Shown in pieces: positions 11,491 through 63,854 of a stretch of DNA of 64,000 nt (its first letter is position 1; every line of letters starts with the position of its first letter). A model generated the notes under the pieces. That model was not told the origin of the DNA. It ran no database searches and saw nothing but the letters and a program-made list of their open reading frames with translations. The DNA comes from a candidate division WOR-3 bacterium (GTDB lineage: Bacteria > Hydrothermota > Tepidihabitantia > Tepidihabitantales > Tepidihabitantaceae): positions 19,285 to 83,284 of the forward strand of contig CBFGJV010000001.1 of the NCBI GenBank assembly GCA_965649205.1, given 5' to 3'. Both the position numbers and the translations under genes were made by a program.

Positions 11491-11619
11491 CTACCACTCG
11501 GTGCCAAGGCCGTTGAAGGCGACGACACGTTCCGAGTATTCTGCACCCCTCTAGGATGCGGTTTAAGTATATGTGCCGAAAGGAAATCGTCAAGTGTATC
11601 CGGAGTCGAGCTTCGGAGG

Positions 11620-13639: not shown

Positions 13640-13642
13640 AGA

Positions 13643-16600
13643 CTACAGACCGGCCCACTCACGCAGGCGTTCAATAACCCGGAATTTCACCTTATTCCAG
13701 TACTCGATGGAGCTCTGCCAACTGTCGGATTCAATTGCTGCGGCTGACACATCGCGCCAGGCGTTGACCACGTCTTTGTCAACGGTTTCACTGAGTAGTT
13801 GCCCATTCAGGTCGAATGCCTTCGTACCCTTACACCTGTCCTTTGCCGGCTTGCCGTTCCTGCCGCAGGGGATCCACCACCACCTACCTGGCCAGTCCGG
13901 GTCCAGGAGCGCGCGCAGGCCGATGTTGGCGGCAGCATTGAGGTCGGCCTGGATGCCTTTGGACGCGGGCGAGTTTCTGTCCGCCGAGACGAAAAGTTCA
14001 CCTGAGCGGTCAAGAATCCGTACCAACTTTGTGTTGTCGGTGCAGCCGTCCCACTTCGCCTTGAGTGCTTCGAGGTACTCGTTTTCTGCTCCCGCGGCGT
14101 TTTTGACCAGCCGTTCGTAGCGCCTCAGGAATTCCGGCACAGGCAGGTCTGTGCATCTTGCGCCCGGCGCGCCGGTGCGGGAATCCTGCCGGGAGGTGTA
14201 ATTGGGTATTACTTGGCGGAGGTGCAGGCCATTCAATTCGCAGGCTTCTTTCAGATACCTGAGAACTTTTACCGCTGACCACTGCATCAATTGACGGTTC
14301 TCGCGGCGGGTGCGGATCTGCTCAGGTCGATAGGAATCCAGATTTTCAACCACAACGGCATGGCAGGGTTTAAAGCGAGGTTCGACGATTGGTTTCTGAG
14401 GCCGCTTACCCCCTTCCCAATGTTTCTTGTCTTCGGAACCGATGCCCAGCGCGGCTTCCACAATTCTGGAAGCCAGTTGTTTCACCCGGTTCTCGCGCAG
14501 ATGTTCTAGTGTATTAAGGACTCGCTGGCCGTAGTTATCCAATCGTATGTCCCCTTTTTCGGGTGTGTTTCTGCGAATGTCTTCCGGCTCCGGTCTTGTC
14601 GTGTACGCTTTCATGGCTTGCCACAATTCGCGGATGTTTGCGAGTCGGTCCAATGACAGGCCACCTACGTGTCGGATAGAGGCATCGGATTTCGGTCTGC
14701 CGCGGGGCAGTAGCCAGTTACGAAGCCAGCGAAGATGACCTTTCCATTGTTTGTCATCTTCGCGCCAACGTGTGGCCCAGATAGTGTGTAGCTTCATCCG
14801 TAACTGGGGATTGCCGGCTAGTTTCGCCGCATAGTCAGTCAGTAGTTTGCGAAGATTCCTATTGTAAGTCTTGAGGTCGGCTTGCGTTGCGTCTTCGCCT
14901 GGCGCGGGTGGAAGTTCCGCCTGCACGTATGTGTGCCACATTTCCTTGGCCCAGTCGTCGCGCCAGCGGGGGCTTTGGAACAGACTCTGCCAGAGTATCA
15001 GGGTGTCTTCTAGGAACTCTCGGCGCCTGTCCGAGGTCAATTCTTCCCAGCGGTCGCCTGGTAGCGGCTTCCGGTCGGTTTTCAGGTTAAAAGCAATTCG
15101 AGCTCGATCGCCATGGCGGCGAAGTCCGAGCCGGGCGGTGTGGACCGCATCAGCCATCAGGCTGACTATGTTGTGAGGCAGAGGGTTGTCTTTCGTTCGG
15201 ATGCGACCGAGCCAGGCTTCGAACTGCTGCACTGCTGCATATTCATCAGGCGATGCCTTCCGGCCGGTTTCATTTTCGCCCTGCAGTTTGATAAGGAATT
15301 GCCGGTCGAGTCTTGCCCACATATCCGGGCCGGTACGACGGTAAATTGTCCTAAGTCTCTTACCGTTTTGACTGAGGAGCAGATGCAGGGCAAGGTCACC
15401 GGGTTTCGGCGGCTTTCGCCCGGCCTCTACGCAGAGGCGGGTCATCTGCTCTTCGGTAAGGGTCTCCCAGACCGCACAGGCTGCCGCGTAGCGGTGGCCG
15501 AGGTCCAGTGATAGCACACGAAAGCCCGGGAATACGGCATAGCATAAGAGTGGCATGCCCTTTCCGTCCTTTATTGTCTTCAGCGTGCGGCCAGGCTTGC
15601 GGGTCCTCGTCCAGGTTGAGTCTGCGGGCCAAGGTTGCCCAAGGGCCGGCTTCCTGTGTCTGCAGGCGGCCAGAGAAGGTGATGAACCAGTTCAGGCCGT
15701 TGCGCATTTTAACAGCTTTTGCATCCCAGCCATGCTTCTGCACGCGTCTGGCTAGCCGGTCGAGCTGGGCGCGGGGCGCCTGCAGGCGGCCGTTCCAGTC
15801 CTTCTCGACGAATACATTTAGGACAAGCACAGCTGTTTCGCTGCCGATGCCGGCTGCGGCGCGGCTGAGTCGGTCGGCGCGGCTAACCCGGACACCATCC
15901 GGAGCCTGTTCTAACATTAGATCAGCAACAAGCCGCTTGGACTGCCAGAGCATTGCGGTTCTGCCAAGCGATGAGCCTGTTACGGTACGTAGCGTAAGCC
16001 GCCGGTCGGACAGGGCGGCGCGGAATCGCGCGCGGGCTTTTTCAAGTTGTTTCTGTGCCCTGAGTAGCTGGGTGGGCATTTTTTCACCAGTGGTTTCGCC
16101 ACAATACGCGAGAGACTGTTTTAATCCGTCCACTTTCAAAACCGCTTTCAGGCAGGAGTTCGCAGCTTTGTGTACGGCAAAAGAAATTGCCCAGCGAGAC
16201 TTGCCGTAGTCGCAGAACACCGGATGAGATAATGGATGAGGATGACGATAGGCCGGGACTTTGAAGCGGCGCATCTTCGCCTGGGCGTCGCGTGCGTTAA
16301 CATAGTCAAGGAGCGGCTGCGGGTCGGGTCTGCCGTTGCGCAACCAGACGATGCTGGCGCCTTCTGCAGACAATGCCTCGAACAGAGTTATGTCGCCGAA
16401 CTTCTCGATTTCGTCCTGCAGTTCTCTGGCCGCAGCCTTGCGGTCTTCGGCGGTGCGGCAGTCTCTTGCAGACCAGGCTTTCACAATTTCTTCCCAACTT
16501 TCTACCGCCCGGGGCTGAATTTGGAGCGGGCCGACCGCACCAGTCAGGCGGCCACGTTCTTCCAAGAATTCGTCCAGCCATTGTTCCACATCGGTCGGAA

Positions 16601-17816
16601 CCTGCTTTTGGGCCTGTTCCGCTAACTTCTGGCGGTTGGCTTCGGCCCGTTTTTGCCAGGAGTGGGCGGAGGAAACCCTCCTGAGTGCGAGATCCAGCAT
16701 TACCGAGTACTCGTCTGTCAGGTTCCGGCCACAGACAAAGGGTAGGCCGGTGGCTTTCTCGACGCGGGCGCGCAATGTCTCGGCCCATTTGGGCACGTTT
16801 CTAGCACCCTTTTTTATTTTCTCCATTTTCTCGTCGGCCTCGGCTGCCAGTTTGGCCTGCATAGTTGAGATCGTATCCGATGTTAGTACCGGCATGGCGT
16901 AAACTTTCTCAATAGCCAGTTTTCCCTGCGAGGGGCGACCTTTCCATCCGATGGCTTTGTAGATGCTGCTGAGCAAGTCTCCCTTTTCCGTCGCCTGAAG
17001 AAGTGTCAGAAGGTGGCTAGCCAAGGCAGAGCCGGACTGACCCTCGTAGTGGCTCAGGTCCGCAGTAGCAAGCGTGCGCAGCTTTTCTGCTATTCGCTCC
17101 AGGTCGCTTTTTTCTCCAGTTCCCCAACAGTTCACGATCCAGCTGCGAGCCTTCTCTCGAAATTTTGTTTCGTGCGCGGCCGCCGCGGTTGATCCGGATT
17201 CTGGTAGCTTGAGGAATTCGTCTAAGTCCCCAAATAACTCTCTAATCGCCGACTGCGCTTGTTCCCTGGTAAGGGTCTTATCGTTCTGCGCTTCCACGTC
17301 GAATGCCTTGGCGCGGTTGACCCAGACCGCGTCTTCTCGAATGGCGGCACAGAGCGAATCTTTGCAGTCGGCAACCCAGGTCTCGATTTCCTCCTTGGTC
17401 AGACCACGTGAGGCGAGAACTTCCTAGAGCGCGGCAACGATTTTGCACTTGCGGTCGGGCGCGGCGTCTTTGCCGGTGGCCACGATGTACTCGGCCGGAG
17501 CACCGTCGGCGGATTCAACCGAGAGCCAGGAAAGTGCGAGCATTATACGACGGTGACGAGTTTCTTGGTCGTCGGGACGGCGTTCGGTTTTCTTCTGGCC
17601 TTTTCCTTCGGTTACCGATAGCTCTGTAAGACGGTGGTCCAGACCACCGCGGAGGGTGAGGAGCCAGTCAGCGAAGACCTTGGTTCCCTTGTTGATTGTC
17701 TCGTGCGTACGCCATAGTGCCTCGCGCCAAGCCTCATCTTCGCTTCCTTCTCTGCCCGGTATGCCGCGCAGGCGCAGCGTGTAGGCCCGTTGGGTAATTG
17801 TCGCAGACGTCGTCAC
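13643..17816 (-). pseudogene. cas12b: cas12b (C2c1) type V-B effector, ~1390 codons, interrupted by an in-frame TAG (17424-17426) and a 1-nt frameshift near 15556-15563
   Basis: Three co-linear ORFs: 17816-17424, 17297-15396 and 15556-13643. The N-terminus LWRTHETINKGTKVFADWLLTLR resembles Cas12b LWKLHKEVNAGVRYYTEWLSLLR. RuvC-I is FRVLSLDLGHRYAAA, RuvC-II is AVVVENLDSYRP...RENRQLMQWS, and the Nuc/RuvC-III region is RCTDLP...WDGC...ADLNAAANIGLRAL; all three match Cas12b. The first and second ORFs share a frame, separated only by TAG. The second and third differ by +1, with the frames diverging at the homopolymer ccc/ttt (15558-15563). Confidence 0.85.
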
Positions 17817-17849: not shown

Positions 17850-18230
17850 GTGGGAAAATTGGATTTGTCAAGAGAGCGGCGGGAGGGTAGCAAGGTAGGC
17901 GGTTCGGGGAGCAGGAAGGGGATTACTCCACCAGGCGGCGGGCGGGGCGCATCAGAGGGCAGGAAGGATAGTAGGTCGCTGCATGGGAGAGTGGGCGGGT
18001 CGGTGAGGGACTCGGCGGGCGGGTGGGCTATTGGACGGGGGAGTTGCCGGGTCTGCGGCCGGGAGGACTACGGGGGATACGGACCGGTGGGCAGGTGGTG
18101 GAGTGGCTCAGGGAGCGGCGGAGCGGGCAGGAGACCGGGTTATCCGGAGAGCCACGGAGGGAGCCGCTGGGGGAGCTGGGGAGGGGGGTAACGGAGGATT
18201 TCAGGTATCAGATTGTGGTGCAAGGAGTTA
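17850..18230. repeat. G/A-rich, C-poor low-complexity tract (GGGNGGG, GGCGGGCGGG runs) in the divergent cas12b / HTH intergenic region
   Basis: The plus strand is dominated by G runs, i.e. the cas12b-sense strand is C-rich. The ORF-track protein here is Gly-rich nonsense. On the cas12b-sense strand the tract shares CCGCCCGCC/CCCACCC motifs with the 45.6-kb C-rich tract. Confidence 0.6.
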
Positions 18231-18255
18231 GGTCGCTAAGAAGCCTTGCGGACCG

Positions 18256-18273
18256 TAATACTAATGAGTATTA
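18256..18273. promoter_or_regulatory. near-palindromic operator TAATACTAATGAGTATTA 10 bp upstream of the XRE regulator start
   Basis: 9+9 inverted repeat with one mismatch. A perfect version, TAATACTCATGAGTATTA, recurs at 62189-62206. Confidence 0.6.
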
Positions 18274-18283
18274 TCAAGTCTGT

Positions 18284-18646
18284 ATGGGCCGCAGGTATGT
18301 GCAGGATTCTTTCTACTTCCCGCAGGCGCTGGGCGAGCGGCTGCGGGAGCTTAGGCTGCGGGCGGGCCTGACCCAGAAGGAGCTGGCAAGTATGGCCGGG
18401 CGGGAGTTTCGGGGCGGGCAGGCCATGGTGAGCAGGCTGGAAAGAGGCCGCATTCGGAGCCCTTCTTTGCGGTTGGTGGCGGATTTTCTGCGGGCCTGTC
18501 GAGCGAGTTTTGACGACATCCGCGATGTCCTGCACGCCTACACGGCGCAGCCATTGGTGGCGGAGAAGCGGGCAAGAAGGGCGGTGCAGAGACTGGTGGA
18601 GGTTTTGCCGGAGGGTGTGGCGGGAAGGTGGATAAGTACGATGTGA
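18284..18646 (+). CDS. XRE-family helix-turn-helix transcriptional regulator
   Basis: HTH_XRE signature LRELRLRAGLTQKELASMAG...VSRLERG. ATG at 18284. The upstream part of the ORF-track frame is G-rich non-coding. Confidence 0.75.
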   Translation: MGRRYVQDSFYFPQALGERLRELRLRAGLTQKELASMAGREFRGGQAMVSRLERGRIRSPSLRLVADFLRACRASFDDIRDVLHAYTAQPLVAEKRARRAVQRLVEVLPEGVAGRWISTM

Positions 18647-19425
18647 AGACGGCAGTGTGGCGTCGGCACCAGGGAGATTTGCCGGAGGCAGAGGCGGCAC
18701 GGTTGGAGAGAGTGAGGGGAATGGCTCAGCAGTTGCTTTTGCGGCAGAAGTTGGAGGAGAGGTTGCATATTGCCCTGAATCATATCGGCGCCAGGCGGGG
18801 CGGGCCGGCAAGAAAGGCGCTGGCCGATTTTGGTCGCAAGGTTTGGGCTATTTTGCGCCGAACGCGGGCGCAGCCAAAGAAGAGGGCGTACCTTTTGTCT
18901 GAGGCGGGCGAGAAGCTGAGGCAGGAACGGGTGGTGACAGACGAGGCCATACGTTATATCGAAACCGTGACGTGCGAGCTTTTTGCGGAGCTGGAGCAGA
19001 AGGGCGAGTTGGATCGCTTGCCGAGCGTAGAGGTCACAGAGGGGCTGCTGGCCAAAAGGGCGGGGGAGCGAGTTATGCGAGATGAGCAGATGTGCGCGGA
19101 GGAGTGGAGAAAGCAGTTGCGGGAGTACGAGCAGGCGCGGGAGCGAATGCTGAGACAGGTGCTGGACGAAGCGAGACCGTTGTTTGCGGAGAAGGGAAAG
19201 CAGGAGGAGGTATTCTATATTGGCGTGGTAAGAGGTTGTTTGTATGCGGCGCAACGGACGCGGGCGGGGAGTAAAGAGCGGGAGCAGGCAACAGAGGAAG
19301 CGTTGCAAGTGGTACGCAGGAAAGGGCTGGATGTAGAGTTGGCGCGACAGGTGGCCGAGTTTGCCTTGCGCAGGTTTGACGAGTTGCTGCGTTTTCTCCC
19401 GCCGAATCCCCGGACGCAGCTCTGA
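18628..19425 (+). CDS. hypothetical Arg/Glu-rich alpha-helical protein (265 aa), operonic with the HTH regulator
   Basis: GTG start overlapping the HTH gene end by 19 nt in another frame. Highly charged, coiled-coil-like composition with no recognisable motif. Confidence 0.45.
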   Translation: MDKYDVKTAVWRRHQGDLPEAEAARLERVRGMAQQLLLRQKLEERLHIALNHIGARRGGPARKALADFGRKVWAILRRTRAQPKKRAYLLSEAGEKLRQERVVTDEAIRYIETVTCELFAELEQKGELDRLPSVEVTEGLLAKRAGERVMRDEQMCAEEWRKQLREYEQARERMLRQVLDEARPLFAEKGKQEEVFYIGVVRGCLYAAQRTRAGSKEREQATEEALQVVRRKGLDVELARQVAEFALRRFDELLRFLPPNPRTQL

Positions 19426-19483: not shown

Positions 19484-20149
19484 ATGAGTGAAATTTTGCG
19501 TCGAATTGCCCGAGCAGTGGAGTCAGGTCACAGCGATGCTGCATCGCCGTATCCGCCAGATATGGTGGGTGAGCCTGGCGTAGATGAACTGACTCGGCAG
19601 GCTTTGGCAGAAGGCATACAGGTAAGGCGGTTGTTGTATGAGGGTCTGGTGGCGGGAATGAAGGCTATTGGCGAGAGGTTCAGCGAGGGGAGTGCGTTTC
19701 TGCCCGAGGTTCTGATGGCGGCGCGGGCTTTGGCTGCGGGCTTTACACATCTGCAGCCGTACTTTTCGTCTGGCGCAGTGAAGCATAAGGGGACGGTGAT
19801 TCTGGGTACAGTACAGGGCGACTTGCACGATATCGGCAAGAAGATTGTGGGTCTGTTTTTTAACGGGGCAGGGTGGAGAGTGGTGGATTTGGGCGTGGAT
19901 GTGCCGCTGGAACGGTTTCTGGCCGCAATCGAGGAGCACAAGCCGCAGGCAGTGGGCTTGAGCACGCTCTTGACTACGACTATGCCGAGCATGGCAAAGA
20001 TTACGGCTGGCATAAAATCCCGGTATCCAGAGTTGAAGGTGGTGGTAGGGGGTGCGCCTTTGACTGCTGAGTTTGCCGCCAGCATAGGGGCGGACTTTTA
20101 TGGCGCGGACCCGCAGATGGCCTTAGACTATCTGGACGGTGCGGTATGA
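19484..20149 (+). CDS. corrinoid (cobalamin-binding) protein, MttC/MtbC-like
   Basis: B12-binding DxHxxG motif (QGDLHDIGKKIV) and a Rossmann B12 domain. ~220 aa, typical of methyltransferase cognate corrinoid proteins. Confidence 0.85.
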   Translation: MSEILRRIARAVESGHSDAASPYPPDMVGEPGVDELTRQALAEGIQVRRLLYEGLVAGMKAIGERFSEGSAFLPEVLMAARALAAGFTHLQPYFSSGAVKHKGTVILGTVQGDLHDIGKKIVGLFFNGAGWRVVDLGVDVPLERFLAAIEEHKPQAVGLSTLLTTTMPSMAKITAGIKSRYPELKVVVGGAPLTAEFAASIGADFYGADPQMALDYLDGAV

Positions 20150-21231
20150 CGAGCAGGGAAGTTATTACCGCGTTGGTGAGGGATAAGGAATGTCCCGAAC
20201 GAGTGGGGCATCAGGAGAGTTTTTGGGAGGACTTGCGACCGGCCTGGGAAGAGCAGGGGTTGCCGCGCGAGGGCCGCATGCAGGAGATTCTGGACTTGGA
20301 TATTATTCCCATAAACGAAGAGTGGACCAGCACCGAGGCGCGAGTGGGCTACAGGCGAATTCTGGAGGAGACAGAAACAACCTATGTGGAAGAGAACGGT
20401 TGGGGTTCGGTGATGCGTTATTGGAAAGGAAAGTCTGGCACCCCAGAGCATCTGTCCTTTGCCCTGACCGACGAGAAGGTATGGAAGGAGAAGTACCGGG
20501 ACCTTTTGACGAGTTTTGATATCCGCCGTCTGGGAGACCTGGAAAGATTGAAGAAGAGGTATCGCGAGCTGGAGTCTTCGGACAAGTTCCGGGTTTACGA
20601 GGTGCTGCAGATATTTGAGATAATGCGGCAGGCGATGGGCGATGTGATAATGCTGGAGGCGATGTGTTTGAATCCGGCCTGGATAACGGATTTCTGCACG
20701 GTAATGACCGATAACATCATTATGCACCTGGAGTATGAGATACGGGAGGTTGGCCTGCCGGACGGTATCTGGTTCTATGAGGACCTGGGTTATCGGCATC
20801 TGCCTTTTGTCTCGCCGCAGATGTATAGAGACCTTCTGCTGCCGCATCACCGTCGGTTTGTGGATTTCTGTCACAGTTATGGTCTGCCGGTGATAATGCA
20901 TACCTGCGGCAATATCGCTCCTCTCTTTCCTTATCTTCTGGAAACGGGTATAGATTGTTTGCAGCCGCTGGAAGCCAAGACCGGGCAGAATTTTATCAAG
21001 ATGGCCGAACTGGCTTCCCGGCGCATAGCTTATATGGGGAATATGGATATCCGGGCGTTTGAGACTAATGACCCGCAGGCCTTGGCGGCAGAAATTTTGC
21101 CCAAGCTGCAGGCGGCGATAGAGAAACGGATACCTTACATTTTCCATTCCGACCACAGTATTCCCCGTACGGTCAAGCTGGCCACCTATCGCTACGCCCG
21201 AGCGTTGGTTGATGAGTACGGTCGTTACTGA
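20146..21231 (+). CDS. uroporphyrinogen-decarboxylase-family methylcorrinoid methyltransferase (MtaA/MtbA/MtgA-like)
   Basis: 361 aa with URO-D fold features. The context between a corrinoid protein and an MttB-family gene indicates a corrinoid:acceptor methyltransferase. Confidence 0.65.
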   Translation: MTSREVITALVRDKECPERVGHQESFWEDLRPAWEEQGLPREGRMQEILDLDIIPINEEWTSTEARVGYRRILEETETTYVEENGWGSVMRYWKGKSGTPEHLSFALTDEKVWKEKYRDLLTSFDIRRLGDLERLKKRYRELESSDKFRVYEVLQIFEIMRQAMGDVIMLEAMCLNPAWITDFCTVMTDNIIMHLEYEIREVGLPDGIWFYEDLGYRHLPFVSPQMYRDLLLPHHRRFVDFCHSYGLPVIMHTCGNIAPLFPYLLETGIDCLQPLEAKTGQNFIKMAELASRRIAYMGNMDIRAFETNDPQALAAEILPKLQAAIEKRIPYIFHSDHSIPRTVKLATYRYARALVDEYGRY

Positions 21232-21246
21232 AACTGAGGGGGAAAA

Positions 21247-22707
21247 ATGAGACCAAAGTTGAAGCTGCTTAGCGAGGGACTTGTTGAGCAGATTGTAGCC
21301 GAGGCACTGGACCTGCTGGCCGTGTTGGGAGTAGAAATAAACAACCCCGGGCTGGTTGAACTGCTGTTGGCCCAGGGCGCAGAATGGGATACCGAGAAGA
21401 AAAGGTTGCTGTTGCCCGAGTCCATGGTGAGGCAGGCTTTGGCTGCTGCTCCGTGTTCGTTCCGGTTGTATGATGTGCGAGGGGAGATGACAAATGAACT
21501 GGGGGGTGATAATGTGTATTTCACCCCGGGTTCTGCGGCGTTGAACATTCTGGATGCAGATACCGGCGAGATGAGACGACCACAGACGCGTGATTACGTG
21601 CAGTATGCCAAGCTGGTGTCGCGTTTAGAACACATTGCGGCCCAGTCCACAGCCCTGATACCGGCAGATGTGCCGGAGAAGATTTCGGACAGCTATCGGT
21701 TGTATCTGTCGTTGCTGTTCTGTGAGAAGCCGGTGGTTACCGGCTGTTTTACGATAGAGTCCTTTCGAGTAATGAAGGAAATGCAGGTGGCGGTGCGGGG
21801 TTCTGAAGAGGAGCTTGTCGCCCGGCCCCTGACCATTTTTTCCTGCTGTCCGACCGCGCCTCTGAAGTGGAGCGAGGTGACTTCGCAGAATGTGGTGGAT
21901 TGTGCGCGGGCCGGTATCCCGGTGGAGTTTATCTCCATGCCTTTGTCCGGCTTTGTGGCGCCTGTCACCCTGGTGGGCACTTTGATTCAGCATACGGCGG
22001 AGACCCTGTCGGGTGTGGTTATCAGTCAAACAGTCGCGCCGGGTTCGCCGATTCTTTATGGCGGTTCGCCGGCGATTTTTGATGTGCGCCGAGAAACTAC
22101 CCCGATGGGCGCCATAGAGACGATGATGATTGACTGTGCCAGTGCAGAAATAGGTAAGTACCTGGGTTTGCCCACGCAGGCTTACATCGGTCTTTCCGAC
22201 GCGAAGCTGCTGGACGCACAAGCCGGGCTGGAAACAGGCATCGGCGCAGTTCTGGCCGCCTTGGCAGGCGTGAACAGCGTGTCTGGTCCGGGCATGCTGG
22301 ATTTTGAGAGTTGTCAGAGTCTGGAGAAGCTGGTGCTGGATAATGAGATATGCGGCATGGCGCTGCGGCTGGTGCGGGGTATTGAGCCGCACGAGGACTT
22401 TCCGGCCTTGAATCTTTTCACCGAACTGTTGAGTGAGAAACATTTGCTTATCAGTCCGCATACCAGGCGCTGGCTGAAGACAGAGCACTACTTTCCCGGG
22501 CCGGTGATAGACCGGGCAAACAGAGGACGCTGGCAGGCTGCCGGTAGTCCTACTCTTTTGGCACGGGCGCGCCGGGAAAAGGAGCGCTTGATCGCCAGCT
22601 GGCAGCCGTCCCGTCTGGCAGAAGAGACAAAAAAGGAACTTACCCGGCTGATGACCACAGAGGCCCGGCGCTGGGGGATGGAACAGCTGCCAGAACTGCC
22701 CGCATGA
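21247..22707 (+). CDS. MttB-superfamily (non-pyrrolysine) quaternary-amine:corrinoid methyltransferase (MtgB/MtqB-like)
   Basis: 486 aa, the length and architecture of the trimethylamine methyltransferase family. Uninterrupted ORF with no in-frame amber codon. GGGAAAAATG RBS. Confidence 0.75.
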   Translation: MRPKLKLLSEGLVEQIVAEALDLLAVLGVEINNPGLVELLLAQGAEWDTEKKRLLLPESMVRQALAAAPCSFRLYDVRGEMTNELGGDNVYFTPGSAALNILDADTGEMRRPQTRDYVQYAKLVSRLEHIAAQSTALIPADVPEKISDSYRLYLSLLFCEKPVVTGCFTIESFRVMKEMQVAVRGSEEELVARPLTIFSCCPTAPLKWSEVTSQNVVDCARAGIPVEFISMPLSGFVAPVTLVGTLIQHTAETLSGVVISQTVAPGSPILYGGSPAIFDVRRETTPMGAIETMMIDCASAEIGKYLGLPTQAYIGLSDAKLLDAQAGLETGIGAVLAALAGVNSVSGPGMLDFESCQSLEKLVLDNEICGMALRLVRGIEPHEDFPALNLFTELLSEKHLLISPHTRRWLKTEHYFPGPVIDRANRGRWQAAGSPTLLARARREKERLIASWQPSRLAEETKKELTRLMTTEARRWGMEQLPELPA

Positions 22708-23432
22708 GACGAGTATTGCGTTTTGCCGCACAGGACTGCAGACCGAGCGAGGAGATGATACTTGCAGGAGAGGGAATGCCCGGCCGGGCTGGAGCGCAAC
22801 CCGAAACCTTGCGGCTGGTGGTTGAAGCCGGGGAATTGTACGAGAGGCTGGCTGCACCGGTGGCCGTGTACGCCAAGATCAGTCGCGAGGAATTCGGCAG
22901 GGTCTTTGTCGGCGAAGGTCGTAATGCGCCAGATGCAGTGCTGGGCAGGATTTATCCCCAGGCGGTCCGTTTGGCTCTTTTTGCCTGTACGGTGGGGAAG
23001 GCTTTGACAGACGAAATCACGCGGCGTTTTGAGCAGCACGATTATGCTCTGGGCTATGTGCTGGATGCTGTGGCTTCGGCTGGAGTGGAAAAATTGGCTG
23101 CACTGGTGGAGGCTGAATACTGCAGGGAAAACAGAGAACAGAAGTCTGGCGGGGAGGATTCGAAAACGGTGCTGAGGTATAGTCCGGGTTACTGCGGCTG
23201 GCATGTGAGCGGCCAGCGCAAGCTGTTTGAGTTTCTCCATCCGGAGGAGATTGGCATTACTCTGCGCGAGAGCTTTCTGATGGAGCCTTTGAAGTCGGTC
23301 TCGGGCGTGTTTGTGGCCGGGCCGGCCGCAATCCACCGTTTTCAGCCGGCTACATTCGTCTTTTGCGCAGAGTGTCGTCAACCGAGCTGCACAGAACGGT
23401 TGGCAGAACTAGAACAACGAACTGGGAGGTGA
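22704..23432 (+). CDS. methionine-synthase activation (AdoMet reactivation) domain protein
   Basis: LRYSPGYCGW...LRESFLMEPLKSVSGVFVAGP aligns to the MetH C-terminal block RPAPGYPACPE...LTESFAMWPGASVSGWYFSHP. Confidence 0.7.
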   Translation: MRRVLRFAAQDCRPSEEMILAGEGMPGRAGAQPETLRLVVEAGELYERLAAPVAVYAKISREEFGRVFVGEGRNAPDAVLGRIYPQAVRLALFACTVGKALTDEITRRFEQHDYALGYVLDAVASAGVEKLAALVEAEYCRENREQKSGGEDSKTVLRYSPGYCGWHVSGQRKLFEFLHPEEIGITLRESFLMEPLKSVSGVFVAGPAAIHRFQPATFVFCAECRQPSCTERLAELEQRTGR

Positions 23433-23436
23433 CAGA

Positions 23437-24075
23437 GTGGAATTGCTGCAGCAGATAGCAGACAGTCTGTGCGCAGGAGAATCAGAACGGGTAGCGCAGC
23501 TGACCCGTCGGGCACTGGATGCCGGCCTTGCGGGCCGCGAGGTCCTGGACAAAGGGTTGCTTGCCGGTATGGACCGGGTAGGCAGGTTGTTTCAAGAGGA
23601 AGAAGTGTTCCTGCCGGATGTGTTGCTTGCGGCCAAGGCGATGTATGCCGGGTTGGAGGTGCTGAAGCCTTTGTTGGAGCAGCAGGGGACAGGCGCGGCC
23701 GCCGGCAAGGTGGTTATCGGGACTGTGCAGGGTGATTTGCACGACATAGGCAAGAATCTGGTGACTATCATGCTGCGGGGCGCAGGGTTTGAGGTGATTG
23801 ACTTGGGCAATGACGTGGCACCGGAGAAATTCATTCAGGTGGCGTGCGAGCAGAATTGTCAGATTATAGGCATGTCCGCACTTCTGACTACTACGATGCC
23901 CGTAATGGGAGAGGTATGCGAGTTGCTGAGAGAAAAAAATCTTGCCGGCAGGATAAAGACGATAATCGGCGGTGCACCGGTGAGCGAGGCTTTTGCCCGC
24001 GAGATAGGGGCGGATGCTTACTGTTATGACGCAGCAGCGGCGGTTGCAACTGTCAAACGTCTTCTTTCTCAGTGA
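23437..24075 (+). CDS. second corrinoid (B12-binding) protein, MetH B12-domain-like
   Basis: DxHxxG motif QGDLHDIGKNLV. 212 aa. Located between the activation-domain and Hcy-domain genes. Confidence 0.85.
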   Translation: MELLQQIADSLCAGESERVAQLTRRALDAGLAGREVLDKGLLAGMDRVGRLFQEEEVFLPDVLLAAKAMYAGLEVLKPLLEQQGTGAAAGKVVIGTVQGDLHDIGKNLVTIMLRGAGFEVIDLGNDVAPEKFIQVACEQNCQIIGMSALLTTTMPVMGEVCELLREKNLAGRIKTIIGGAPVSEAFAREIGADAYCYDAAAAVATVKRLLSQ

Positions 24076-25013
24076 AAACAGACGAACAGGGAGGTAAGAC
24101 GTTGTCCAGACGGGAAAGGCTGTGGGAACGGGTGAGGTCTGGTCAGGTTCTCCTTGCCGATGGCGCACTGGGTTCTTTGCTGCTGGCGAAGGGTTTGAAA
24201 CCCGGGCAGGCACCTGAAGAATTGTGTCTTTCTCGGCCGGAAGTTCTGGCTGAGATTGTACGTCTTTACCAGGAGGCGGGCGCAGAGGTTTTTCAGGCGA
24301 ATACCTTTGGTGCGTCGCCTCTGAAGCTGGAGCAGCACGGTTTGGCCGAAAAAATGGAGGAGATAAACCGGCAGGCGGTAAGAATCGTGCGGGAAGTGGT
24401 GGGGGAGGAGGGGTATGTATGGGCTTCGGTAGGTCCTTCCGGTCGTCTACTGGAACCGTACGGAGATGTCTCAGCCGAAAGGATGTATGAGAATTTTGCC
24501 CGGCAGACAACCGTGTTGGCAGAAGCCGGTGCGGACATTATCGCCATTGAGACTATGACCGATCTGGCCGAGGCAAAGCTGGCGCTGGCAGCCGCCGTGG
24601 ATACTGGCAGAGCCAGCGGGGCGGTGATTACGGTTTCCCTGACTTTCGAAAAGCGGCGCCGAGGGTTCTTTACGGTCATGGGCAACTCCATCGCTGATGC
24701 CGTTGCCGCTTTGGCTGACGCAGACATGATTGGCTCTAACTGCGGCAATGGTATGGATAATATGGTGGAGATTGCCCGAGAGTTCCGCCGGCTGACGGAT
24801 AAGCTGCTGGTAATCAGACCGAATGCCGGTCTGCCTGAAATTCGCAACGGTGCGGTTGTGTATCCGGAGACGCCAGAGTTTATGGCCGAGCGGATTCCGG
24901 CACTTCTGGAATGCAAGCTGGGTATTCTGGGAGGTTGTTGTGGCACGACGCCTGAGCATATACGTGCCTTCCGGCGGGTACTGGAGAAAGAACAGAGCAG
25001 ACGGTCGGGTTAG
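24072..25013 (+). CDS. homocysteine S-methyltransferase domain protein (MetH N-terminal Hcy-binding domain-like)
   Basis: ADGALGSLLL (compare MetH LDGGMGT) and the zinc-binding GGCCGTTPEHI motif near the C-terminus. Confidence 0.8.
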   Translation: MKTDEQGGKTLSRRERLWERVRSGQVLLADGALGSLLLAKGLKPGQAPEELCLSRPEVLAEIVRLYQEAGAEVFQANTFGASPLKLEQHGLAEKMEEINRQAVRIVREVVGEEGYVWASVGPSGRLLEPYGDVSAERMYENFARQTTVLAEAGADIIAIETMTDLAEAKLALAAAVDTGRASGAVITVSLTFEKRRRGFFTVMGNSIADAVAALADADMIGSNCGNGMDNMVEIAREFRRLTDKLLVIRPNAGLPEIRNGAVVYPETPEFMAERIPALLECKLGILGGCCGTTPEHIRAFRRVLEKEQSRRSG

Positions 25014-45045: not shown

Positions 45046-45190
45046 GGTTTTGGTCTCCAGTTCTCGAACCGTGCTTGATTTTTGCGTCTAAGAGAACCAA
45101 TCATGGTGAAAAAGGTGGAAGTAAGATACAGCAAAACCTTTATGCGTCAAGCCAGGAAAGACAAGAGGGCGGCGTGGAACCGCCCTCTGA

Positions 45191-45265
45191 TAGCCCCATG
45201 GGGATTTGAACCCCAGTCTTCTGGCTGAGAACCAGATGTCCTAGGCCGGACTAGACGATGGGGCC
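45191..45265 (-). tRNA. tRNA-Glu (anticodon CUC)
   Basis: The reverse complement gives GGCCCCATCGTCTAGTCCGGCCTAGGACATCTGGTTCTCAGCCAGAAGACTGGGGTTCAAATCCCCATGGGGCTA, a 75-nt cloverleaf. The 7-bp acceptor stem starts with a G-U pair. The anticodon loop is TTCTCAG (CUC). The D-arm resembles bacterial tRNA-Glu. No CCA is encoded. Confidence 0.9.
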
Positions 45266-45559
45266 ACAGACATTCGTCTATTGGCCAATAATAGCTTTGG
45301 AATTGAAGGTGTCAATGTCAAGGTTTTCGCTAGAAGCGCCAGCCAAGGCCCAGCGTAAGCTCCTGTCTCGGACTGGCGCGTTTCCTATGAGAGCTGCAGC
45401 GCCGGCAACTCGTCAGGGTCAGGCACAGGCAATGGGAAAATGCTCTTGCCCGCCTGCGGCACAACCCGCTTCAGTATCCCACGCCCTTTAGACTCTTGAT
45501 GTCGGTTCCTCTTGGTGTTTGCTAAAAAGCACTTGACCTTATTACCTACCAAAGTACCC

Positions 45560-45960
45560 GCGCCTACCGTTATGCGGCCAGACAGCTTCCTCAACTGCTC
45601 CCTGACCAGCCTGGCCGGCAACTCACAGACCGGCCTACTCAGCCGCCCGCCAAGCGACCAGCTAAGCCACTCACCCAGCCGCCCCTCTGACAACTCTCCC
45701 TCCCATTCTCCCTTCTGCCTGCCAACCTGCCCTCTAAACAGCTCTCCAGACCACCCACCAGCCAGCCTACTCCCCGACCCCCCTCCCGACCCGGCTAACT
45801 ACTCGCCAAACCACCCGCCTCACCGCCCGGTATTCTGCTCCCAGAACAACCCGCCAGACCGCCCACCCAGCAGTCTCCCCAGCGACCCCCCTACGAAAAA
45901 GCTTCACTTACAACACTGATCCGCCGCCCTTACAGCCGTACCGCCTCTCTACCGCACACA
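45560..45960. repeat. C/A-rich, G-depleted low-complexity tract with degenerate CCAGNCCGCCCACCCAGC-like units, inside a ~940-bp gene-free region
   Basis: The plus strand is almost devoid of G. Motifs CCGCCCGCC, CCCACCC and CTCCC recur. The only ORF here is a Pro-rich compositional artefact. Confidence 0.6.
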
Positions 45961-46209
45961 CATTTACGAAATTTCCTCCCCGCGGCATATAAAACTATAG
46001 AGGCGAAAAATGAAAAACATCCCCCTCCGGTCCGAAACCAGACAACTCCACGCCCGCATCCGCTCTTAGGAATACATAAATACGTCTTGCATGTTGGTGC
46101 TGAGAGACTACAATCTGGCGTGAGATGTGTTGGCAGGTTCCCGGCTCGGGGCAGAAAGAGCGGTACAAGAAGTTAAGGAACGTGCCCGGCTTTGCGTGAC
46201 GAGGTATAG

Positions 46210-59005: not shown

Positions 59006-60163
59006 CTACAGTGCAAGAGCCAGCCCCACCGCGGCAGACAGGCCTAAAAGACCGCCGAGCAGAAAAGGAGCAGCCGGACCCAGTATCTTCCATAGAGCCC
59101 CGGCGAGAAGCGAAGCCGGCAGCAGGCCGATACCTACAAGTGTGGCATGCAGACCGATAAAGGTAGCGCGGAGGGGTTCTGGTGCAAGGTCGGCCACCAG
59201 AGCTTTTTCCTGACCTTCGGTCAGAGCGCTGAAAACCCCGTACAGCGCAAAAAGAGGCCAGACAAGCCAGGACCGGTTTGGAGGACCAAGCAAGGCAAAG
59301 CCAAGGTAAACCAGACCATACAGAGCGTAGCCAGCTACCAGCAGTCGTTTGCGACTGTTGGTAGCGTCCGCAATCTTGCCGGCCGGCCAGGAGAGCAGTC
59401 CATAAACTAGGTTGTAAACGAGGTAGGCTAAGAGCGTCGTAGCCACGGAGAAGCCGATAGTTCTGATGCGCAGAATCAAGAACTGATTGGAAGAGTTGCC
59501 CAACGCAAAAAGACCGGTCAGCACGAGAAAGTTACGCAGCTTCTTAGGCATTTTCCTCGGACCTGGCAGTGTTAGTTCACGCATGGTCTGATGGCGAAAA
59601 GTCTCACGTACAAAAAAGAGCATAATGACCCCGAGTACCTGTGGAATCAGGGCGATGAGGAATATGGGAGCGAAATCGGCCCGGCCGGGAGTTGCGGGAA
59701 ACCGCTGGACGAGCAGAATGGCTACGGTTACTCCTACAGCCGCGCCCAGAGTGTCCATGGCTCTGTGCAGACCGAACGCTCCGCTGCGTCGGCCCGGAGG
59801 AATGGAGTCGGCGATGAGAGCGTCGCGGGGAGCGTTGCGAATGCCCTTGCCTATCCGGTCAGCAAGTCGGCCGGCAAACACCAGCCCCCAGCCGCGGGCC
59901 AGATAGAACAAAAGCTTCCCAAGAGTTGAGCCGGCATAACCGATAATGGCAAGAGGCTTGCGCCGCCCCATCCGGTCAGAAATGCGTCCGGAAAAGACTT
60001 TGAGTAAAGACGCGGTACTCTCACTCAGACCCTCAATAAGTCCGAGTGCGGTCCACGGACTGGCCGTGAGTGTGGTGAGAAAAATCGGCAACAGAGGATA
60101 GACCATTTCGGTGGAAAGGTCGGTGAGGAAACTGGCAAGACCCGTAATTATGACGTTGAACAC
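59006..60163 (-). CDS. MFS transporter
   Basis: 12 predicted TM helices and the MFS signature GRISDRMGRRKPL...GRLADRIGKG. Confidence 0.8.
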   Translation of the reverse strand: MFNVIITGLASFLTDLSTEMVYPLLPIFLTTLTASPWTALGLIEGLSESTASLLKVFSGRISDRMGRRKPLAIIGYAGSTLGKLLFYLARGWGLVFAGRLADRIGKGIRNAPRDALIADSIPPGRRSGAFGLHRAMDTLGAAVGVTVAILLVQRFPATPGRADFAPIFLIALIPQVLGVIMLFFVRETFRHQTMRELTLPGPRKMPKKLRNFLVLTGLFALGNSSNQFLILRIRTIGFSVATTLLAYLVYNLVYGLLSWPAGKIADATNSRKRLLVAGYALYGLVYLGFALLGPPNRSWLVWPLFALYGVFSALTEGQEKALVADLAPEPLRATFIGLHATLVGIGLLPASLLAGALWKILGPAAPFLLGGLLGLSAAVGLALAL

Positions 60164-60175
60164 TATCCGTCCCGC

Positions 60176-61891
60176 TCAAGTGCGAAACGGTCGCACCCAG
60201 AGAATCAGCGTCTCCACAATCATCCAGAGCTCAAGGACAAGACAGACGGCGCTGACGAAGAAGAGCAACCAGTTGCCTATACTGGCGTATTGCAGCAGTC
60301 CGCGTGCCAGCGCCCAGCTGGTCATGGTTAGCATAAAAAGGGCCGGCAAGAGTGTTAGCCAGTAGAACCTGCTTCGTGACCTCAGCCAGGCGGTAACAAC
60401 CAGGAGTGCTAGCCCGGCCAGTAACTGATTCAGCGCACCGAATACCGGCCAGAGCGCAAGCGCACCAGCACCGTTTGTGCCGCTGGCAAAAGCTAGGGCT
60501 CCCGCGCTTCCTACGGCTATCGTGGTAGCGACCCAGGGGTTACTGAGAGCGGGTAGACGTACGGTGCGAGCCAGTTCTGAAACCACATAACGCTGAAGGC
60601 GAGTTGCGGTGTCGAGTGTTGTGGCGGCGAAACTGACCACTAGAACTCCCATTATTGCCACGGCTGCCCCCAGAGGAATGCCATAGCTTGAAAGCAAATT
60701 GGCGGCACCGGTGACAAATGCATCCAAGTTGGCGTTCATGCCCGATGCGGTGCCCCAACTGGCATAGTGGTGAGTCCAGGCGGCCACTCCTGTAAGCAGC
60801 GACCCGTCGGTGGCGCGATAGGACATACCGATGCCGGCACAGCAGGCGATGATAACCAGAACCGCCAACGCCGATTCCACGAGCATGGAGCCGTATCCTA
60901 CGAAAAGGGCGTCCGGTTCACGCGCCACCTGCTTGGAAGAGGTGCCAGATGAAACGAGGGCGTGGAACCCGGAAATGGCGCCACAGGCGATGGTTATGAA
61001 GAGAATCGGCCAGACTGGTGGAGCTCCGGGCACGGCCGAACGAAAGGCAGGTGCTACCAGAGGAACTCGGCCGGAAACTCCGGCAACCAGGACTCCTAGG
61101 GTCATTAGAACAAGCGCTATACCCAGTTCCCAAGCATTGATATAGTCGCGGGGCTGCAGTAGGGTAGTCACCGGCAAAACCGAAGCCGCAAAGGCGTATA
61201 TTAGCAGAATGATAGTCCAGACACCAGTAGCGGGAATGCCAAGTACTGGGGGCATAAGCAGGGGAAAACGCCAGCCGATTAGGATTGTCAGATACATAAG
61301 AATCACTGCGGCAATGTCGAAAAGCAGCAAACGATTAGCCAAACCGCGGCGATATACCAACCAGCCCAGAGTGACAGCAATAGGTATTTCTGACCAGACG
61401 GGAATGACTGCAGCGGGAAAGCGGTTGAAGATAAGAGCCATTACCAGACCGAATATGGCGATAACGACCCACAGAATAAGCATAACGATGAGGAAGAAAA
61501 TGATTCGTACGCGGGGGCCAATAAGCTCCCCGGTAATGTCGGCGATGGAACGTCCCTGATTGCGCATGGAGACCACTAGTGCGCCGAAGTCGTGGACGCC
61601 ACCCATCAGAATGGAGCCGAAGAACACCCAGATGAAGGCCGGAACCCAGCCCCAGATGACACCGATCGCCGGACCTACGATAGGGCCGGTACCGGCGATA
61701 GAGGTAAAATGGTGGCCAAAGATGATAATGCGTTTTGTCGGTACGTAGTCGCGGTTGTCGCGGAGCTCACTCGCGGGAACTTTCCTCGTCGGATCCAGCT
61801 TGAAAACGCGCCTGGCCAGAAAACGGCCATAAGTATTGTAGGCAAGAAGGTAGCCGGCGAATGTAGCGAGCATCAACAGGACCGTGGTCAT
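60176..61891 (-). CDS. cstA: carbon starvation protein A (peptide/pyruvate transporter family)
   Basis: N-terminal CstA block YNTYGRFLARRVFKLDP...DYVPTKRIIIFGHHFTSIAGTGPIVGPA. ~16 TM helices. Confidence 0.85.
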   Translation of the reverse strand: MTTVLLMLATFAGYLLAYNTYGRFLARRVFKLDPTRKVPASELRDNRDYVPTKRIIIFGHHFTSIAGTGPIVGPAIGVIWGWVPAFIWVFFGSILMGGVHDFGALVVSMRNQGRSIADITGELIGPRVRIIFFLIVMLILWVVIAIFGLVMALIFNRFPAAVIPVWSEIPIAVTLGWLVYRRGLANRLLLFDIAAVILMYLTILIGWRFPLLMPPVLGIPATGVWTIILLIYAFAASVLPVTTLLQPRDYINAWELGIALVLMTLGVLVAGVSGRVPLVAPAFRSAVPGAPPVWPILFITIACGAISGFHALVSSGTSSKQVAREPDALFVGYGSMLVESALAVLVIIACCAGIGMSYRATDGSLLTGVAAWTHHYASWGTASGMNANLDAFVTGAANLLSSYGIPLGAAVAIMGVLVVSFAATTLDTATRLQRYVVSELARTVRLPALSNPWVATTIAVGSAGALAFASGTNGAGALALWPVFGALNQLLAGLALLVVTAWLRSRSRFYWLTLLPALFMLTMTSWALARGLLQYASIGNWLLFFVSAVCLVLELWMIVETLILWVRPFRT

Positions 61892-62186
61892 GAGTGCTGA
61901 AGTATAAGGAGCGTCTGTTCGCGGTCAAGAAACAAGACAAGGCACTGCCCTCAGGGTAGCGACAGTGACTGTCTGAGACCTTATTTCGTAGCTACCCAAG
62001 TTGGCCGGATTCTTTCTTGCCCGATCATCGTCGCCTGAGACCGCGCCATGTCCTTATGCCACAGAACAGGACACTACTAGATGCTTCCAATACAGACCTG
62101 CTGGGGAAGCTGGTGAGGGGGAGAAGGACATTTTCGGGTATCTCATTGATTGGCCTGATGTTAACAGCGATAACCGCATACCGGCA

Positions 62187-62208
62187 CGTAATACTCATGA
62201 GTATTACG
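62187..62208. promoter_or_regulatory. perfect 22-bp palindrome CGTAATACTCATGAGTATTACG, 44 bp upstream of the 62252 gene
   Basis: Perfect inverted repeat. Its core matches the near-palindrome in front of the XRE regulator at 18256-18273, so it is a putative shared operator. Confidence 0.6.
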
Positions 62209-62251
62209 ACGGGCTTGCTTCCAGGTAGCGGTTTTCTAGAATTGTGTTAGT

Positions 62252-62848
62252 ATGGCGAAGGCGCGCGTCCGCATCTGGAGCGTCAGTTTCGGGTGGAAGC
62301 TGATAGTTATTCTTCTTGCCGCATCTTTGACCCAACAGGCCCGGGCCTGGACCTGCGGCAGCATCGTTGACGCCAGGTTGTTCTTTTCTGGCTATCGTTC
62401 TTTCACAGCTCTCAGATACGGTTTTGGCGCAAAACCGCCGTGGGGGCTGGGAATTGGCGCTGCCTGGTATGAGTGTTTTGGCAACTACGGGCCTCCCTGG
62501 CAGATGCAGAATATTCCTCTTGTCAGCTCCTGGCTGAGATATGTTGGCTGCGTCCTGCCTCATGCCGGAGACGATGTGTCCGGCAATCTGCCTCTTACGC
62601 TGTATTATGTGCCCTTTGTAAGGAAAAACAGCAGAGGAATGGCGCAACTTGTAACTTATGCGTCGCTTACAGCCAACTATTGGTTGGCTGAGCCGGCTTA
62701 CGCATATGCGAGTCTGGGCGCAGGCACAGAGCTAATCAGTTTGGAACTCGGCTGGTTGCGAACAGAATGGAAGGCGGAAGAAAATACGAAGCAGCAGATA
62801 CAGTTCCGCGCGGGGTTGCATATAGGTGTAGGCTGGGTCTTCAGATGA
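62252..62848 (+). CDS. small secreted/outer-membrane beta-barrel-like protein (hypothetical)
   Basis: Signal peptide KLIVILLAASLTQQARA, alternating amphipathic strands, and a C-terminal aromatic residue (GVGWVFR). Confidence 0.45.
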   Translation: MAKARVRIWSVSFGWKLIVILLAASLTQQARAWTCGSIVDARLFFSGYRSFTALRYGFGAKPPWGLGIGAAWYECFGNYGPPWQMQNIPLVSSWLRYVGCVLPHAGDDVSGNLPLTLYYVPFVRKNSRGMAQLVTYASLTANYWLAEPAYAYASLGAGTELISLELGWLRTEWKAEENTKQQIQFRAGLHIGVGWVFR

Positions 62849-62867: not shown

Positions 62868-63854
62868 ATGAAGTACAGAGCCAGATTCTGGAAACCGGAA
62901 GGGACAATGGTCCGCTGCGAGCTATGCCCGAACTTCTGTCTGATTGCCGAAGGTAAGCGCGGCCGTTGCCTCGGACGAATGAATGTCGGTGGCGAACTCT
63001 GGGCCGTAAACTACGGTGAGACTGTTGCCCTGCATATGGACCCCATAGAAAAGAAACCTCTGTACCATTTCCTGCCCGGTTCGGTTGTTCTTTCTGTGGC
63101 AACCTATGGCTGCAATCTTCTTTGTCCATTCTGTCAGAACTGGGAGATATCCCAAAAGATAGCGCCTGCGAACTACATGGCACCAGAGGAACTCGTGGAA
63201 GCAGCGCTGGAGAACCGTTCTCCGGCTGTAGCCTTCACCTACACCGAGCCTTTGATATGGTTTGAGTACCTGATGGATGTCTGTCCCCTGTTACACCGGG
63301 CCGGCGTGAAGAATGTGCTGGTTACCAACGGTATGATAAACCCTGCTCCGCTAGATGAACTGCTGCCTCACATTGACGCTATGAATGTGGACCTCAAATC
63401 GATTCGACCCGAGTTCTACGCAACTTATGTCAAAGGGTCGCTTGCCGCGGTGCAGAATACCCTGCGTCGGGCGGCTAGACGGTGCCATTTGGAGATAACA
63501 AATCTGCTCATACCTGGTCGCAACGACACGGAAGCAGAACTTGCCGAACTGGTGGCGTTTGTAGAGAGCCTGGGCCGTACGGTTCCCCTGCATTTTTCCC
63601 GCTACTTTCCCAGACACAAGTCGAATGAGCCGGCTACGCCTGAGAGCACCTTGTTGGCGGCGGCCGAACTGGCCAGAAGCAGACTGTACTATGTCTATCT
63701 GGGAAATGTGTCTACGCCAGCCCGCTTTCGTGATACCTTCTGTCCAAGCTGTGGTAATCTCCTTGTCGAACGCAGCCATTATCGGGGCAGTGTGAAGGGC
63801 ATAGAGGGGGGCAAATGTACTGTCTGCGACAGACCTGCCGATGTCGTGCTCTGA
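62868..63854 (+). CDS. AmmeMemoRadiSam-system radical SAM enzyme
   Basis: N-terminal VRCELCPNFCLIAEGKRGRC...DPIEKKPLYHFLPGSVVLSVATYGCNLLCPFCQNWEIS, which is the CxxxCxxC radical-SAM cluster plus the family-specific N-terminal Cys motif. Confidence 0.8.
   Translation: MKYRARFWKPEGTMVRCELCPNFCLIAEGKRGRCLGRMNVGGELWAVNYGETVALHMDPIEKKPLYHFLPGSVVLSVATYGCNLLCPFCQNWEISQKIAPANYMAPEELVEAALENRSPAVAFTYTEPLIWFEYLMDVCPLLHRAGVKNVLVTNGMINPAPLDELLPHIDAMNVDLKSIRPEFYATYVKGSLAAVQNTLRRAARRCHLEITNLLIPGRNDTEAELAELVAFVESLGRTVPLHFSRYFPRHKSNEPATPESTLLAAAELARSRLYYVYLGNVSTPARFRDTFCPSCGNLLVERSHYRGSVKGIEGGKCTVCDRPADVVL

Follow-up and report, generated by a model that had tools for sequence, protein, structure and literature searches.

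The palindrome O2 and its flanking genes

The 64-kb stretch of DNA that was analyzed, referred to here as the window, includes a 22-bp palindrome, CGTAATACTCATGAGTATTACG, at positions 62187-62208 between cstA (60176-61891, minus strand; PF02554, 5.7e-134) and an ORF for a 198-aa protein (62252-62848, plus strand). The palindrome, designated O2, consists of the halves CGTAATACTCA and TGAGTATTACG which are complementary at all 11 pairs and abut without a spacer, as a preliminary description of this DNA had stated. The accompanying claim that O2 is the strongest palindrome in the window also was borne out: the half-length is 11, compared to 9 for the runner-up at 39678. Palindromes with half-lengths of ≥11 are expected 0.016 times per 64 kb, and a half-length of 11 was attained in 11 of 1000 mononucleotide shuffles of the window. 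The dyad symmetry provides two 11-bp half-sites, a size which fits an HTH dimer.

When the window was searched for sites with three or fewer mismatches to O2, the sole further match was located ~44 kb away at 18254-18275, and no such site emerged in 100 dinucleotide-preserving shuffles. This second sequence, CGTAATACTAATGAGTATTATC, is designated O1, is identical to O2 at 19 of 22 positions, and precedes an HTH_31 gene, which agrees with the earlier suggestion that the palindrome matches the operator of an XRE gene. The count of two copies applies to 64 kb of the genome; apart from the ortholog of O2, no copies were present in 728 kb from related loci. Genome contigs were scanned with the 18-mer TAATACTNATNAGTATTA, a short and uninformative pattern that returned at least 116 chance matches from AT-rich unrelated taxa, and none from the contig of the window among the matches listed. 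The same 18-mer was present on four contigs (L045, L063, L066 and L097) of the Saccharibacteria MAG CAYZNQ01, twice on one of them, which exceeds chance for one genome and may denote a repeat or a regulon motif there.

The 42-nt contexts of the two palindromes fold to 9-bp and 8-bp hairpins with energies of -13.1 and -14.1 kcal/mol, respectively (z -3.2 and -4.4), and the larger region around the palindrome possessed structure no greater than shuffles (z -0.3). O2 was discounted as an intrinsic terminator: the stem is AT-rich, neither copy is followed by a T-run and the terminator scan was silent at the palindrome, the terminator-like sites listed in the vicinity being at 62282-62304 and 61951-61939.

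Promoter elements that were sought near the palindrome were found 3' of O2 in the form of a candidate promoter for the 198-aa ORF, TTGCTT-16-TAGAAT (62215-62242, plus strand). O2 ends 6 bp 5' of the -35 hexamer (62215-62220), and the -10 hexamer (62237-62242) is positioned 9 nt before the ATG at 62252. An identical 9-nt separation from the start codon was evident for the XRE gene, the 198-aa ORF and cstA (18269-18284, 62237-62252 and 61891-61906, respectively), with no Shine-Dalgarno sequence visible, which suggests that leaderless or near-leaderless mRNAs are common in this organism. This spacing would place the center of O2 at about -51.5, and its edge at -41, relative to the transcription start site that we infer for the 198-aa ORF. 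No support emerged for assigning O2 to a divergent cstA promoter; a separate promoter for cstA is located at 61928-61901, ~270 bp from O2.

The putatively regulated 198-aa protein bears a predicted N-terminal signal peptide and belongs to a rare, uncharacterized family, with seven matches among 1.84 billion representatives. The signal-peptide-like N-terminus and motifs in the protein are conserved in homologs, and neither the protein nor its homologs matched entries in Pfam or NCBIfam. An AF2 model (pLDDT 40) was beta-rich but unreliable, and the C-terminus reads ...GWVFR; the earlier label of a small beta-barrel protein is at most putative. A homolog with 39% identity is encoded inside an ETF/acyl-CoA dehydrogenase cluster that lacks both the radical SAM gene and the regulatory module described below, and the gene arrangement at O2 therefore is lineage-specific. 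The next gene in the window (62868-63854, plus strand) begins 19 nt after the 198-aa ORF and specifies an AmmeMemoRadiSam-type radical SAM enzyme (rSAM), an identification made previously and now corroborated by a score of 297.2 bits against TIGR04337 (AmmeMemoSam_rS; cut-off 220). No terminator was reported in the 19-nt gap, and the two genes probably are co-transcribed; the ORF after rSAM (63930) has its own promoter-like site. With a conserved promoter adjacent to O2 and no terminator reported between the genes, the earlier proposal that the palindrome controls both the 198-aa ORF and rSAM is plausible.

The expectation that the AMMECR1 and Memo partners of rSAM would be found beyond the window was not upheld in related loci. 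In L199, the Logan contig that carries the sole close homolog of the 198-aa ORF (P0019, 88%), rSAM is followed by genes for DUF4321 (93 aa), a convergent Kelch/Por_Secre_tail protein and MgsA, with no AMMECR1 or Memo in the 9 kb downstream. In the more distant locus L001, a 64%-identical rSAM ortholog is situated between ApbE and NusG_II, with Hpre_diP_synt_I also present and again no AMMECR1 or Memo. Within the window itself, scanning of ORFs of ≥150 aa against Pfam revealed no AMMECR1 or Memo domains, and a scan with the RGCIG motif for partner genes gave a single spurious match.

The XRE regulator gene and homology between the O1 and O2 regions

O1 is located upstream of a plus-strand gene (18284-19425) for an XRE-family regulator of ~380 aa, comprising an HTH and a helical domain of ~290 aa. 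The ORF from 18284 matches Pfam HTH_31 (E 1.9e-12) as well as HTH_3, stops after 120 codons, and resumes in another frame (18628-19425). The frames can be joined at a 1-nt slip near 18620, within GGCGGGAAGG (18610-18630), to give a 380-aa protein that is covered to 98-99% by homologs of 383-387 aa and whose junction aligns with these homologs. A homopolymer slip is the simplest explanation for the frameshift in this assembly, although the gene could instead be a pseudogene. The AlphaFold model of the protein is all-helical and confident (pLDDT 88). Relatives in the PDB were restricted to the N-terminal HTH and included C.AhdI (4.4e-6), CapH, 434 repressor, ClgR, DdrO, HipB and SinR; the C-terminal domain of ~290 aa had no significant relative either by Foldseek or in a PDB profile search. 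The top whole-chain Foldseek matches were PlcR (3u3w) and ComR (6hua), with TM values of 0.16-0.25 and E values of 8e-3 to 2e-2. The promoter of the gene is TTGCGG-17-TATTAT (18246-18274, plus strand), with hexamers at 18246-18251 and 18269-18274. O1 spans the spacer and -10 of this promoter, and its 3' end lies 8 nt before the ATG at 18284. As the -10 hexamer is 9 nt before the ATG, the center of O1 is predicted to be near -16.5.

A type V-B CRISPR-Cas locus is divergent to the XRE gene (11096-17816, minus strand). It includes a C2c1/Cas12b-like gene in three ORFs (17816-17424, 17297-15396 and 15556-13643), for which assembly frameshifts or a pseudogene both are possible, cas4 (12896-13639) and cas1 (11910-12896), together with a mini-array in which a 37-nt repeat occurs three times (11096-11273). 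The frameshift in the XRE gene and the split cas12b together suggest indel errors in the assembly. An association of the regulator with CRISPR was rejected: homologs in other genomes have differing, unrelated neighborhoods without cas genes, and the adjacency of the XRE gene and cas12b therefore looks incidental. The XRE gene is followed directly on its 3' side by a cluster for corrinoid-dependent methyltransferases (19484-25013) that encodes B12-binding proteins, a URO-D-like methyltransferase, an MttB-family protein, a Met_synt_B12 activation domain and a homocysteine S-methyltransferase. Rfam gave a borderline match to PYLIS_3 in this cluster (22192-22291; 39.9 bits vs. 38), within the ORF for the MttB-family protein, and this ORF is not interrupted by an in-frame stop.

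The likeness of the O1 and O2 regions extends beyond the palindromes. Approximately 112 bp align almost gap-free between the two sites, comprising Box 1, Box 2, a poorly conserved stretch with Box 3, and the palindrome. In the 5' region of the XRE gene, the boxes are at 18166-18187 (Box 1), 18204-18215 (Box 2) and 18226-18232 (Box 3, AGTTAGG), all on the plus strand. Their counterparts near O2, on the same strand, are a copy of Box 1, GCTGGGGAAGCTGGTGAGGGGG (62100-62121), 87 nt 5' of the palindrome; a copy of Box 2, GGTATCTCATTGATT (62137-62151), that was delineated by alignments between the window sites and across the family; and a degenerate Box 3, TGTTAAC (62159-62165), for which the family consensus is AGTTAGG. 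The G-rich Box 1 and Box 2 (GGTATCnnATTG) are common to both regions, homology reaches ~90 nt 5' of the palindrome through Boxes 1-3, and the window contains just two matches to Box 1, 88 and 87 nt 5' of O1 and O2, respectively. The boxes also are conserved 5' of XRE homologs from many other genomes. Given this shared, co-linear order of Boxes 1-3 and the palindrome, O2 lies within a ~115-bp paralog of the XRE 5' regulatory region that lacks the repeat array considered below. A remnant of an XRE pseudogene beside O2 was ruled out by tblastn, which detected no XRE coding remnant.

Read in register with the XRE copy, vestigial XRE-type hexamers embrace O2 (62179-62207, plus strand), with TACCGG in place of TTGCGG and TATTAC in place of TATTAT. 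O1 departs from symmetry at three pairs (positions 1/22, 2/21 and 10/13), and it is precisely at these pairs that the two sites differ; two of the three differences coincide with the 3' end of the -10 hexamer of O1 and the next base. In our reading, O1 would represent a compromise between operator and promoter, and the perfect symmetry of O2 may reflect optimization for dimer binding because this site no longer doubles as a -10 element. Beside cstA, an MFS transporter gene (59006-60163) has a 62%-identical ortholog in the distant locus L129 (9837-11132), ~3 kb from an XRE homolog; the orientation is mismatched, but the arrangement may hint at an ancestral neighborhood of the regulator and the O2 region.

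The window and L199 share 87.1% DNA identity over 2 kb. Identity was complete for O2 (22/22) and for the -35 and -10 hexamers (6/6 each), and was 95% (139/147) over the whole module (62096-62242); the distal intergenic region and the start of the CDS were 83% and 77% identical, respectively. The bases directly flanking O2 are substituted on both sides in L199, and Box 1 of this relative is an exact match to the Box 1 near the XRE gene in the window. At the observed divergence, the probability of no change in 22 nt is ~0.02-0.05. This footprint, which derives from a single relative, argues for selection on the module over an undecayed relic. An XRE ortholog was not recovered from the L199 organism.

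Conserved features upstream of XRE family genes

One metagenome scan with an alignment of the XRE family produced 80 loci, from which ~50 upstream regions were retained after removal of redundancy. Among 49 non-redundant members of the family from other genomes, 42 have the pattern TTGnnn-17-TAnnnT just 5' of the start codon, an architecture that matches the XRE promoter in the window. The -10 hexamer is separated from the start codon by exactly 9 nt in 21 loci, one of which is the window, and by 21 nt in 10. Most upstream regions possess a spacer-less palindrome of 16-20 bp over the spacer and -10, exemplified by ATTCTACAGCGCTGTAGAAT, CCTACAGCGCTGTAGG, TATATGAATTCATATA, ATTATACTTCGTAGTATAAT and ATATGTAGTATACTACATAT. 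A palindrome score of ≥7 in the last 50 nt was noted for 36% of family loci; the corresponding frequencies were 0.8% for shuffles and 2.4% for random windows drawn from the same loci. Different recognition helices are paired with different palindromes: K(K/S)AGN-LV(G/S)R(I/L)E with CTACAG..CTGTAG, G(K/R)A(C/N)-IVSRME with TATATGA.., DWAHS-LVAKLE with TGTAyAC.., and RGGQA-MVSRLE, the helix encoded in the window, with TAATACTnATnAGTATTA (TAATACT..AGTATTA). The type of palindrome thus appears to follow the recognition helix across the family; phylogeny confounds this correlation, which hence is supportive rather than proof.

The family pattern is a classic signature of an autoregulated HTH repressor, and the copy at 18254 is interpreted as an autoregulatory operator because the family palindromes hold a fixed promoter position and co-vary with the helix. 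XRE regulators commonly autoregulate via palindromes located 5' of their own genes, and nine of 10 predicted XRE motifs were bound in EMSA in a large-scale study (PMC12565409). No second copy of the palindrome of each homolog was found within ±10 kb at 43 loci (408 kb), a range that is blind to separations of 44 kb. As the palindrome never recurs within this distance, a regulon of multiple sites is not demonstrated for the family.

Tandem arrays with a 12-nt period are a further attribute of these loci. In 40 of 43 analyzed family loci, an array of 9-45 units occupies 0.1-0.5 kb directly 5' of Box 1, with lag-12 self-match that rises to 0.82 when the full upstream region is considered and to 0.96 in the cleanest stretch, in L136. 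Examples are (GGCAAAGGCTCT)n in L136 (400-720) and (GGCAGAGAGCTT)n in L126 (9520-9870). The sense strand of the arrays is G-rich and the units vary by locus, many including an rAGCTy core. The window harbors a degenerate array of this type at 17880-18165 (boundaries approximate), G-rich on the XRE sense strand, that was missed by TRF and detected by autocorrelation: lag-12 self-match was 0.40-0.42, the background for the window being 0.272 ± 0.035. The O2 module has no array, its lag-12 value of 0.27 being equal to background. The arrays were dismissed as coding sequence, as there was no lag-3 signal and the best frame was open in 16 of 40. Rfam searches at gathering and permissive thresholds gave no match at modules or arrays, and a literature search uncovered no precedent for 12-nt/12-bp arrays beside regulators.

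Only two arrays in the 752 kb that were scanned are not directly 5' of an XRE-family gene. One is the strongest in the window (45524-45998; lag-12 0.50-0.54, G-rich on the minus strand) and is located between tRNA-Glu(ctc) (45189-45266, minus strand) and a 223-aa ORF that is followed by an ECF sigma/anti-sigma pair; neither an XRE gene nor Box 1 is present. The other, in L166 (280-773), has units like GGTTGAACCTGC and is followed by CTTGACG-17-TAGAAT and a gene pair of nucleotidyltransferase (MNT)/HEPN type (969-1632).

The order of elements 5' of the XRE genes would describe a cassette: the 12-bp array, Box 1 (GGGGAGCnGGGGAGGGG), Box 2, Box 3, and an operator-promoter 9 nt before the start codon, with Box 3 (AGTTAGG) sitting 13 nt before the -35. 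This conserved array-and-box cassette, in uncultivated T9SS-bearing bacteria, is the most unusual aspect of these loci. Tentatively, and with fairly low confidence, array platform, boxes and operator-promoter might constitute the cassette of an undescribed regulatory system that can be copied without the array to wire new genes, in this case the 198-aa ORF and rSAM, into the circuit. The array and boxes could act as a protein-loading or titration platform, possibly for the large C-terminal domain of the regulator.

A model for O2 and its relation to known systems

We consider it likely that O2 serves the dimeric XRE regulator (18284-19425) as a second operator and couples the 198-aa ORF and rSAM to this protein. 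In the model, a regulator dimer at O1 would occlude RNA polymerase and thereby exert negative autoregulation. A piece of the XRE 5' regulatory region would have been copied without the array and now stands before an unrelated gene, where the copied promoter hexamers would have decayed and O2 become perfectly symmetric. O2 would then be a high-affinity site at which the same regulator binds 6 bp 5' of the conserved -35, with transcription initiating no more than a few nt from the ATG of the 198-aa ORF and extending through rSAM. The gene pair thereby would be tied to the level of the regulator and to the signal sensed by its large C-terminal helical domain. Activation or recruitment at O2 is slightly favored over repression, because a center near -51.5 and an edge at -41 are not the classic position for occlusion; however, a center of -51.5, calculated from the inferred start site, matches neither the canonical position of a repressor nor that of a class I or II activator. 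The likeness of O1 and O2 alone is no proof of function because the sites are paralogous, and the case rests instead on conservation and symmetry.

The same paralogy would be expected if O2 were a non-functional relic of a duplicated or rearranged XRE 5' region whose palindrome has yet to decay. Common descent is evident in the shared Boxes 1-3, the -35, -10 and Box 3 have decayed in the copy at 62187, no XRE coding remnant is nearby, and the proximity (~3 kb) of the MFS ortholog to the XRE homolog in L129 hints at past linkage. Against a relic, O2 is more symmetric than O1, and all three differences between the sites restore pairing. Moreover, O2 has been retained intact in L199 while the flanking bases, distal intergenic region and CDS diverged, and Box 1 of L199 equals the XRE-side Box 1 of the window. 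A relic is accordingly regarded as improbable, although it is the foremost of the alternatives to a second operator.

Other roles for the palindrome have markedly lower probability. It might act in RNA, either by forming a hairpin within a 5' leader or by terminating or attenuating an upstream transcript, for which the stable hairpins of 9 and 8 bp in the 42-nt contexts speak. Neither copy is followed by a U-tract, however, the terminator scan had no match at the palindrome, and the larger region showed neither excess structure (z -0.3) nor an Rfam match even at E≤1. Furthermore, the family palindromes are between -35 and -10 at a fixed spacing of 17 nt and hence 5' of the inferred start site, and loop-less stems are typical of protein-binding sites; a function in RNA is very unlikely. 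Equally slight is the chance that O2 serves another protein or process, be it a different regulator, restriction-modification, recombination or the end of a mobile element. Binding of the XRE protein to O2 is itself a prediction, and the window also encodes the ECF sigma/anti-sigma pair. Yet in dozens of genomes the palindrome is tightly tied to XRE-family genes, its sequence co-varies with the HTH, it is present as two copies in 64 kb and, save for the ortholog, is absent from 728 kb of related loci, and there is no terminal-repeat partner or transposase near O2. Coincidence effectively is refuted: ~1% of shuffled 64-kb sequences do hold a palindrome with 11-bp arms, but the second copy matching at 19 of 22 positions (none in shuffles), the co-linear flanks and the conservation in L199 make a chance origin exceedingly improbable.

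Viewed as a second operator, O2 has several implications. It offers a testable regulator-operator pair in an uncultivated lineage, and would link an orphan AmmeMemoRadiSam-type rSAM and a secreted protein of unassigned role to a specific transcription factor. The locus may exemplify regulon growth by copying of the control region of a regulator, with the operator being optimized once freed from its role as a -10 element. The comparison also exposed the upstream cassette of 12-nt arrays and boxes that accompanies the XRE family in dozens of genomes.

With respect to the AmmeMemoRadiSam system, the rSAM encoded here is alike in scoring above the TIGR04337 cut-off but differs in that AMMECR1 and Memo were absent from the scanned window ORFs, the 9 kb downstream in L199 and the L001 neighborhood. 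The regulator resembles RRNPP proteins (PlcR, ComR and Rgg) in combining an HTH with a large all-helical domain and in its top whole-chain Foldseek matches, and the position of O2 is reminiscent of PlcR-type boxes which activate from 5' of the -35. Nevertheless, the TM values were just 0.16-0.25 with no E≤1e-3, and RRNPP members are Firmicutes proteins whereas the organism here has T9SS-type genes. Controller (C) proteins of restriction-modification systems (C.AhdI, C.BclI and C.Esp1396I) gave the best matches to the HTH in both sequence and fold, and bind palindromic boxes (C-boxes) immediately 5' of their own genes. Their transcripts can be leaderless, as we infer for the XRE gene. In contrast to the regulator described here, C proteins are single-domain proteins of ~75-100 aa; no restriction-modification system is near the XRE gene, and C-boxes are tandem pairs that mediate activation and then repression, whereas the XRE loci have a single palindrome.

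DdrO with the RDRM palindrome in Deinococcus, ClgR in actinobacteria, SinR and HipB are autoregulated repressors of the XRE/Cro-CI type. The regulator in the window is like these proteins in its HTH_31/HTH_3 domain, in the dimer palindrome over its own promoter, and in the recurrence of the motif at a distant target promoter. It differs in its length of ~380 aa, in a C-terminal helical domain of ~290 aa for which the PDB offers no relative by sequence, and in the location of the second site 5' of the -35 instead of over the core promoter. To our knowledge, conserved upstream boxes and 12-nt arrays are known for none of the DdrO, ClgR, SinR and HipB systems. Sharing of the operator with the XRE gene is well supported by the sequence comparisons and points to an ordinary kind of gene switch that is operated by an uncharacterized family of regulators.
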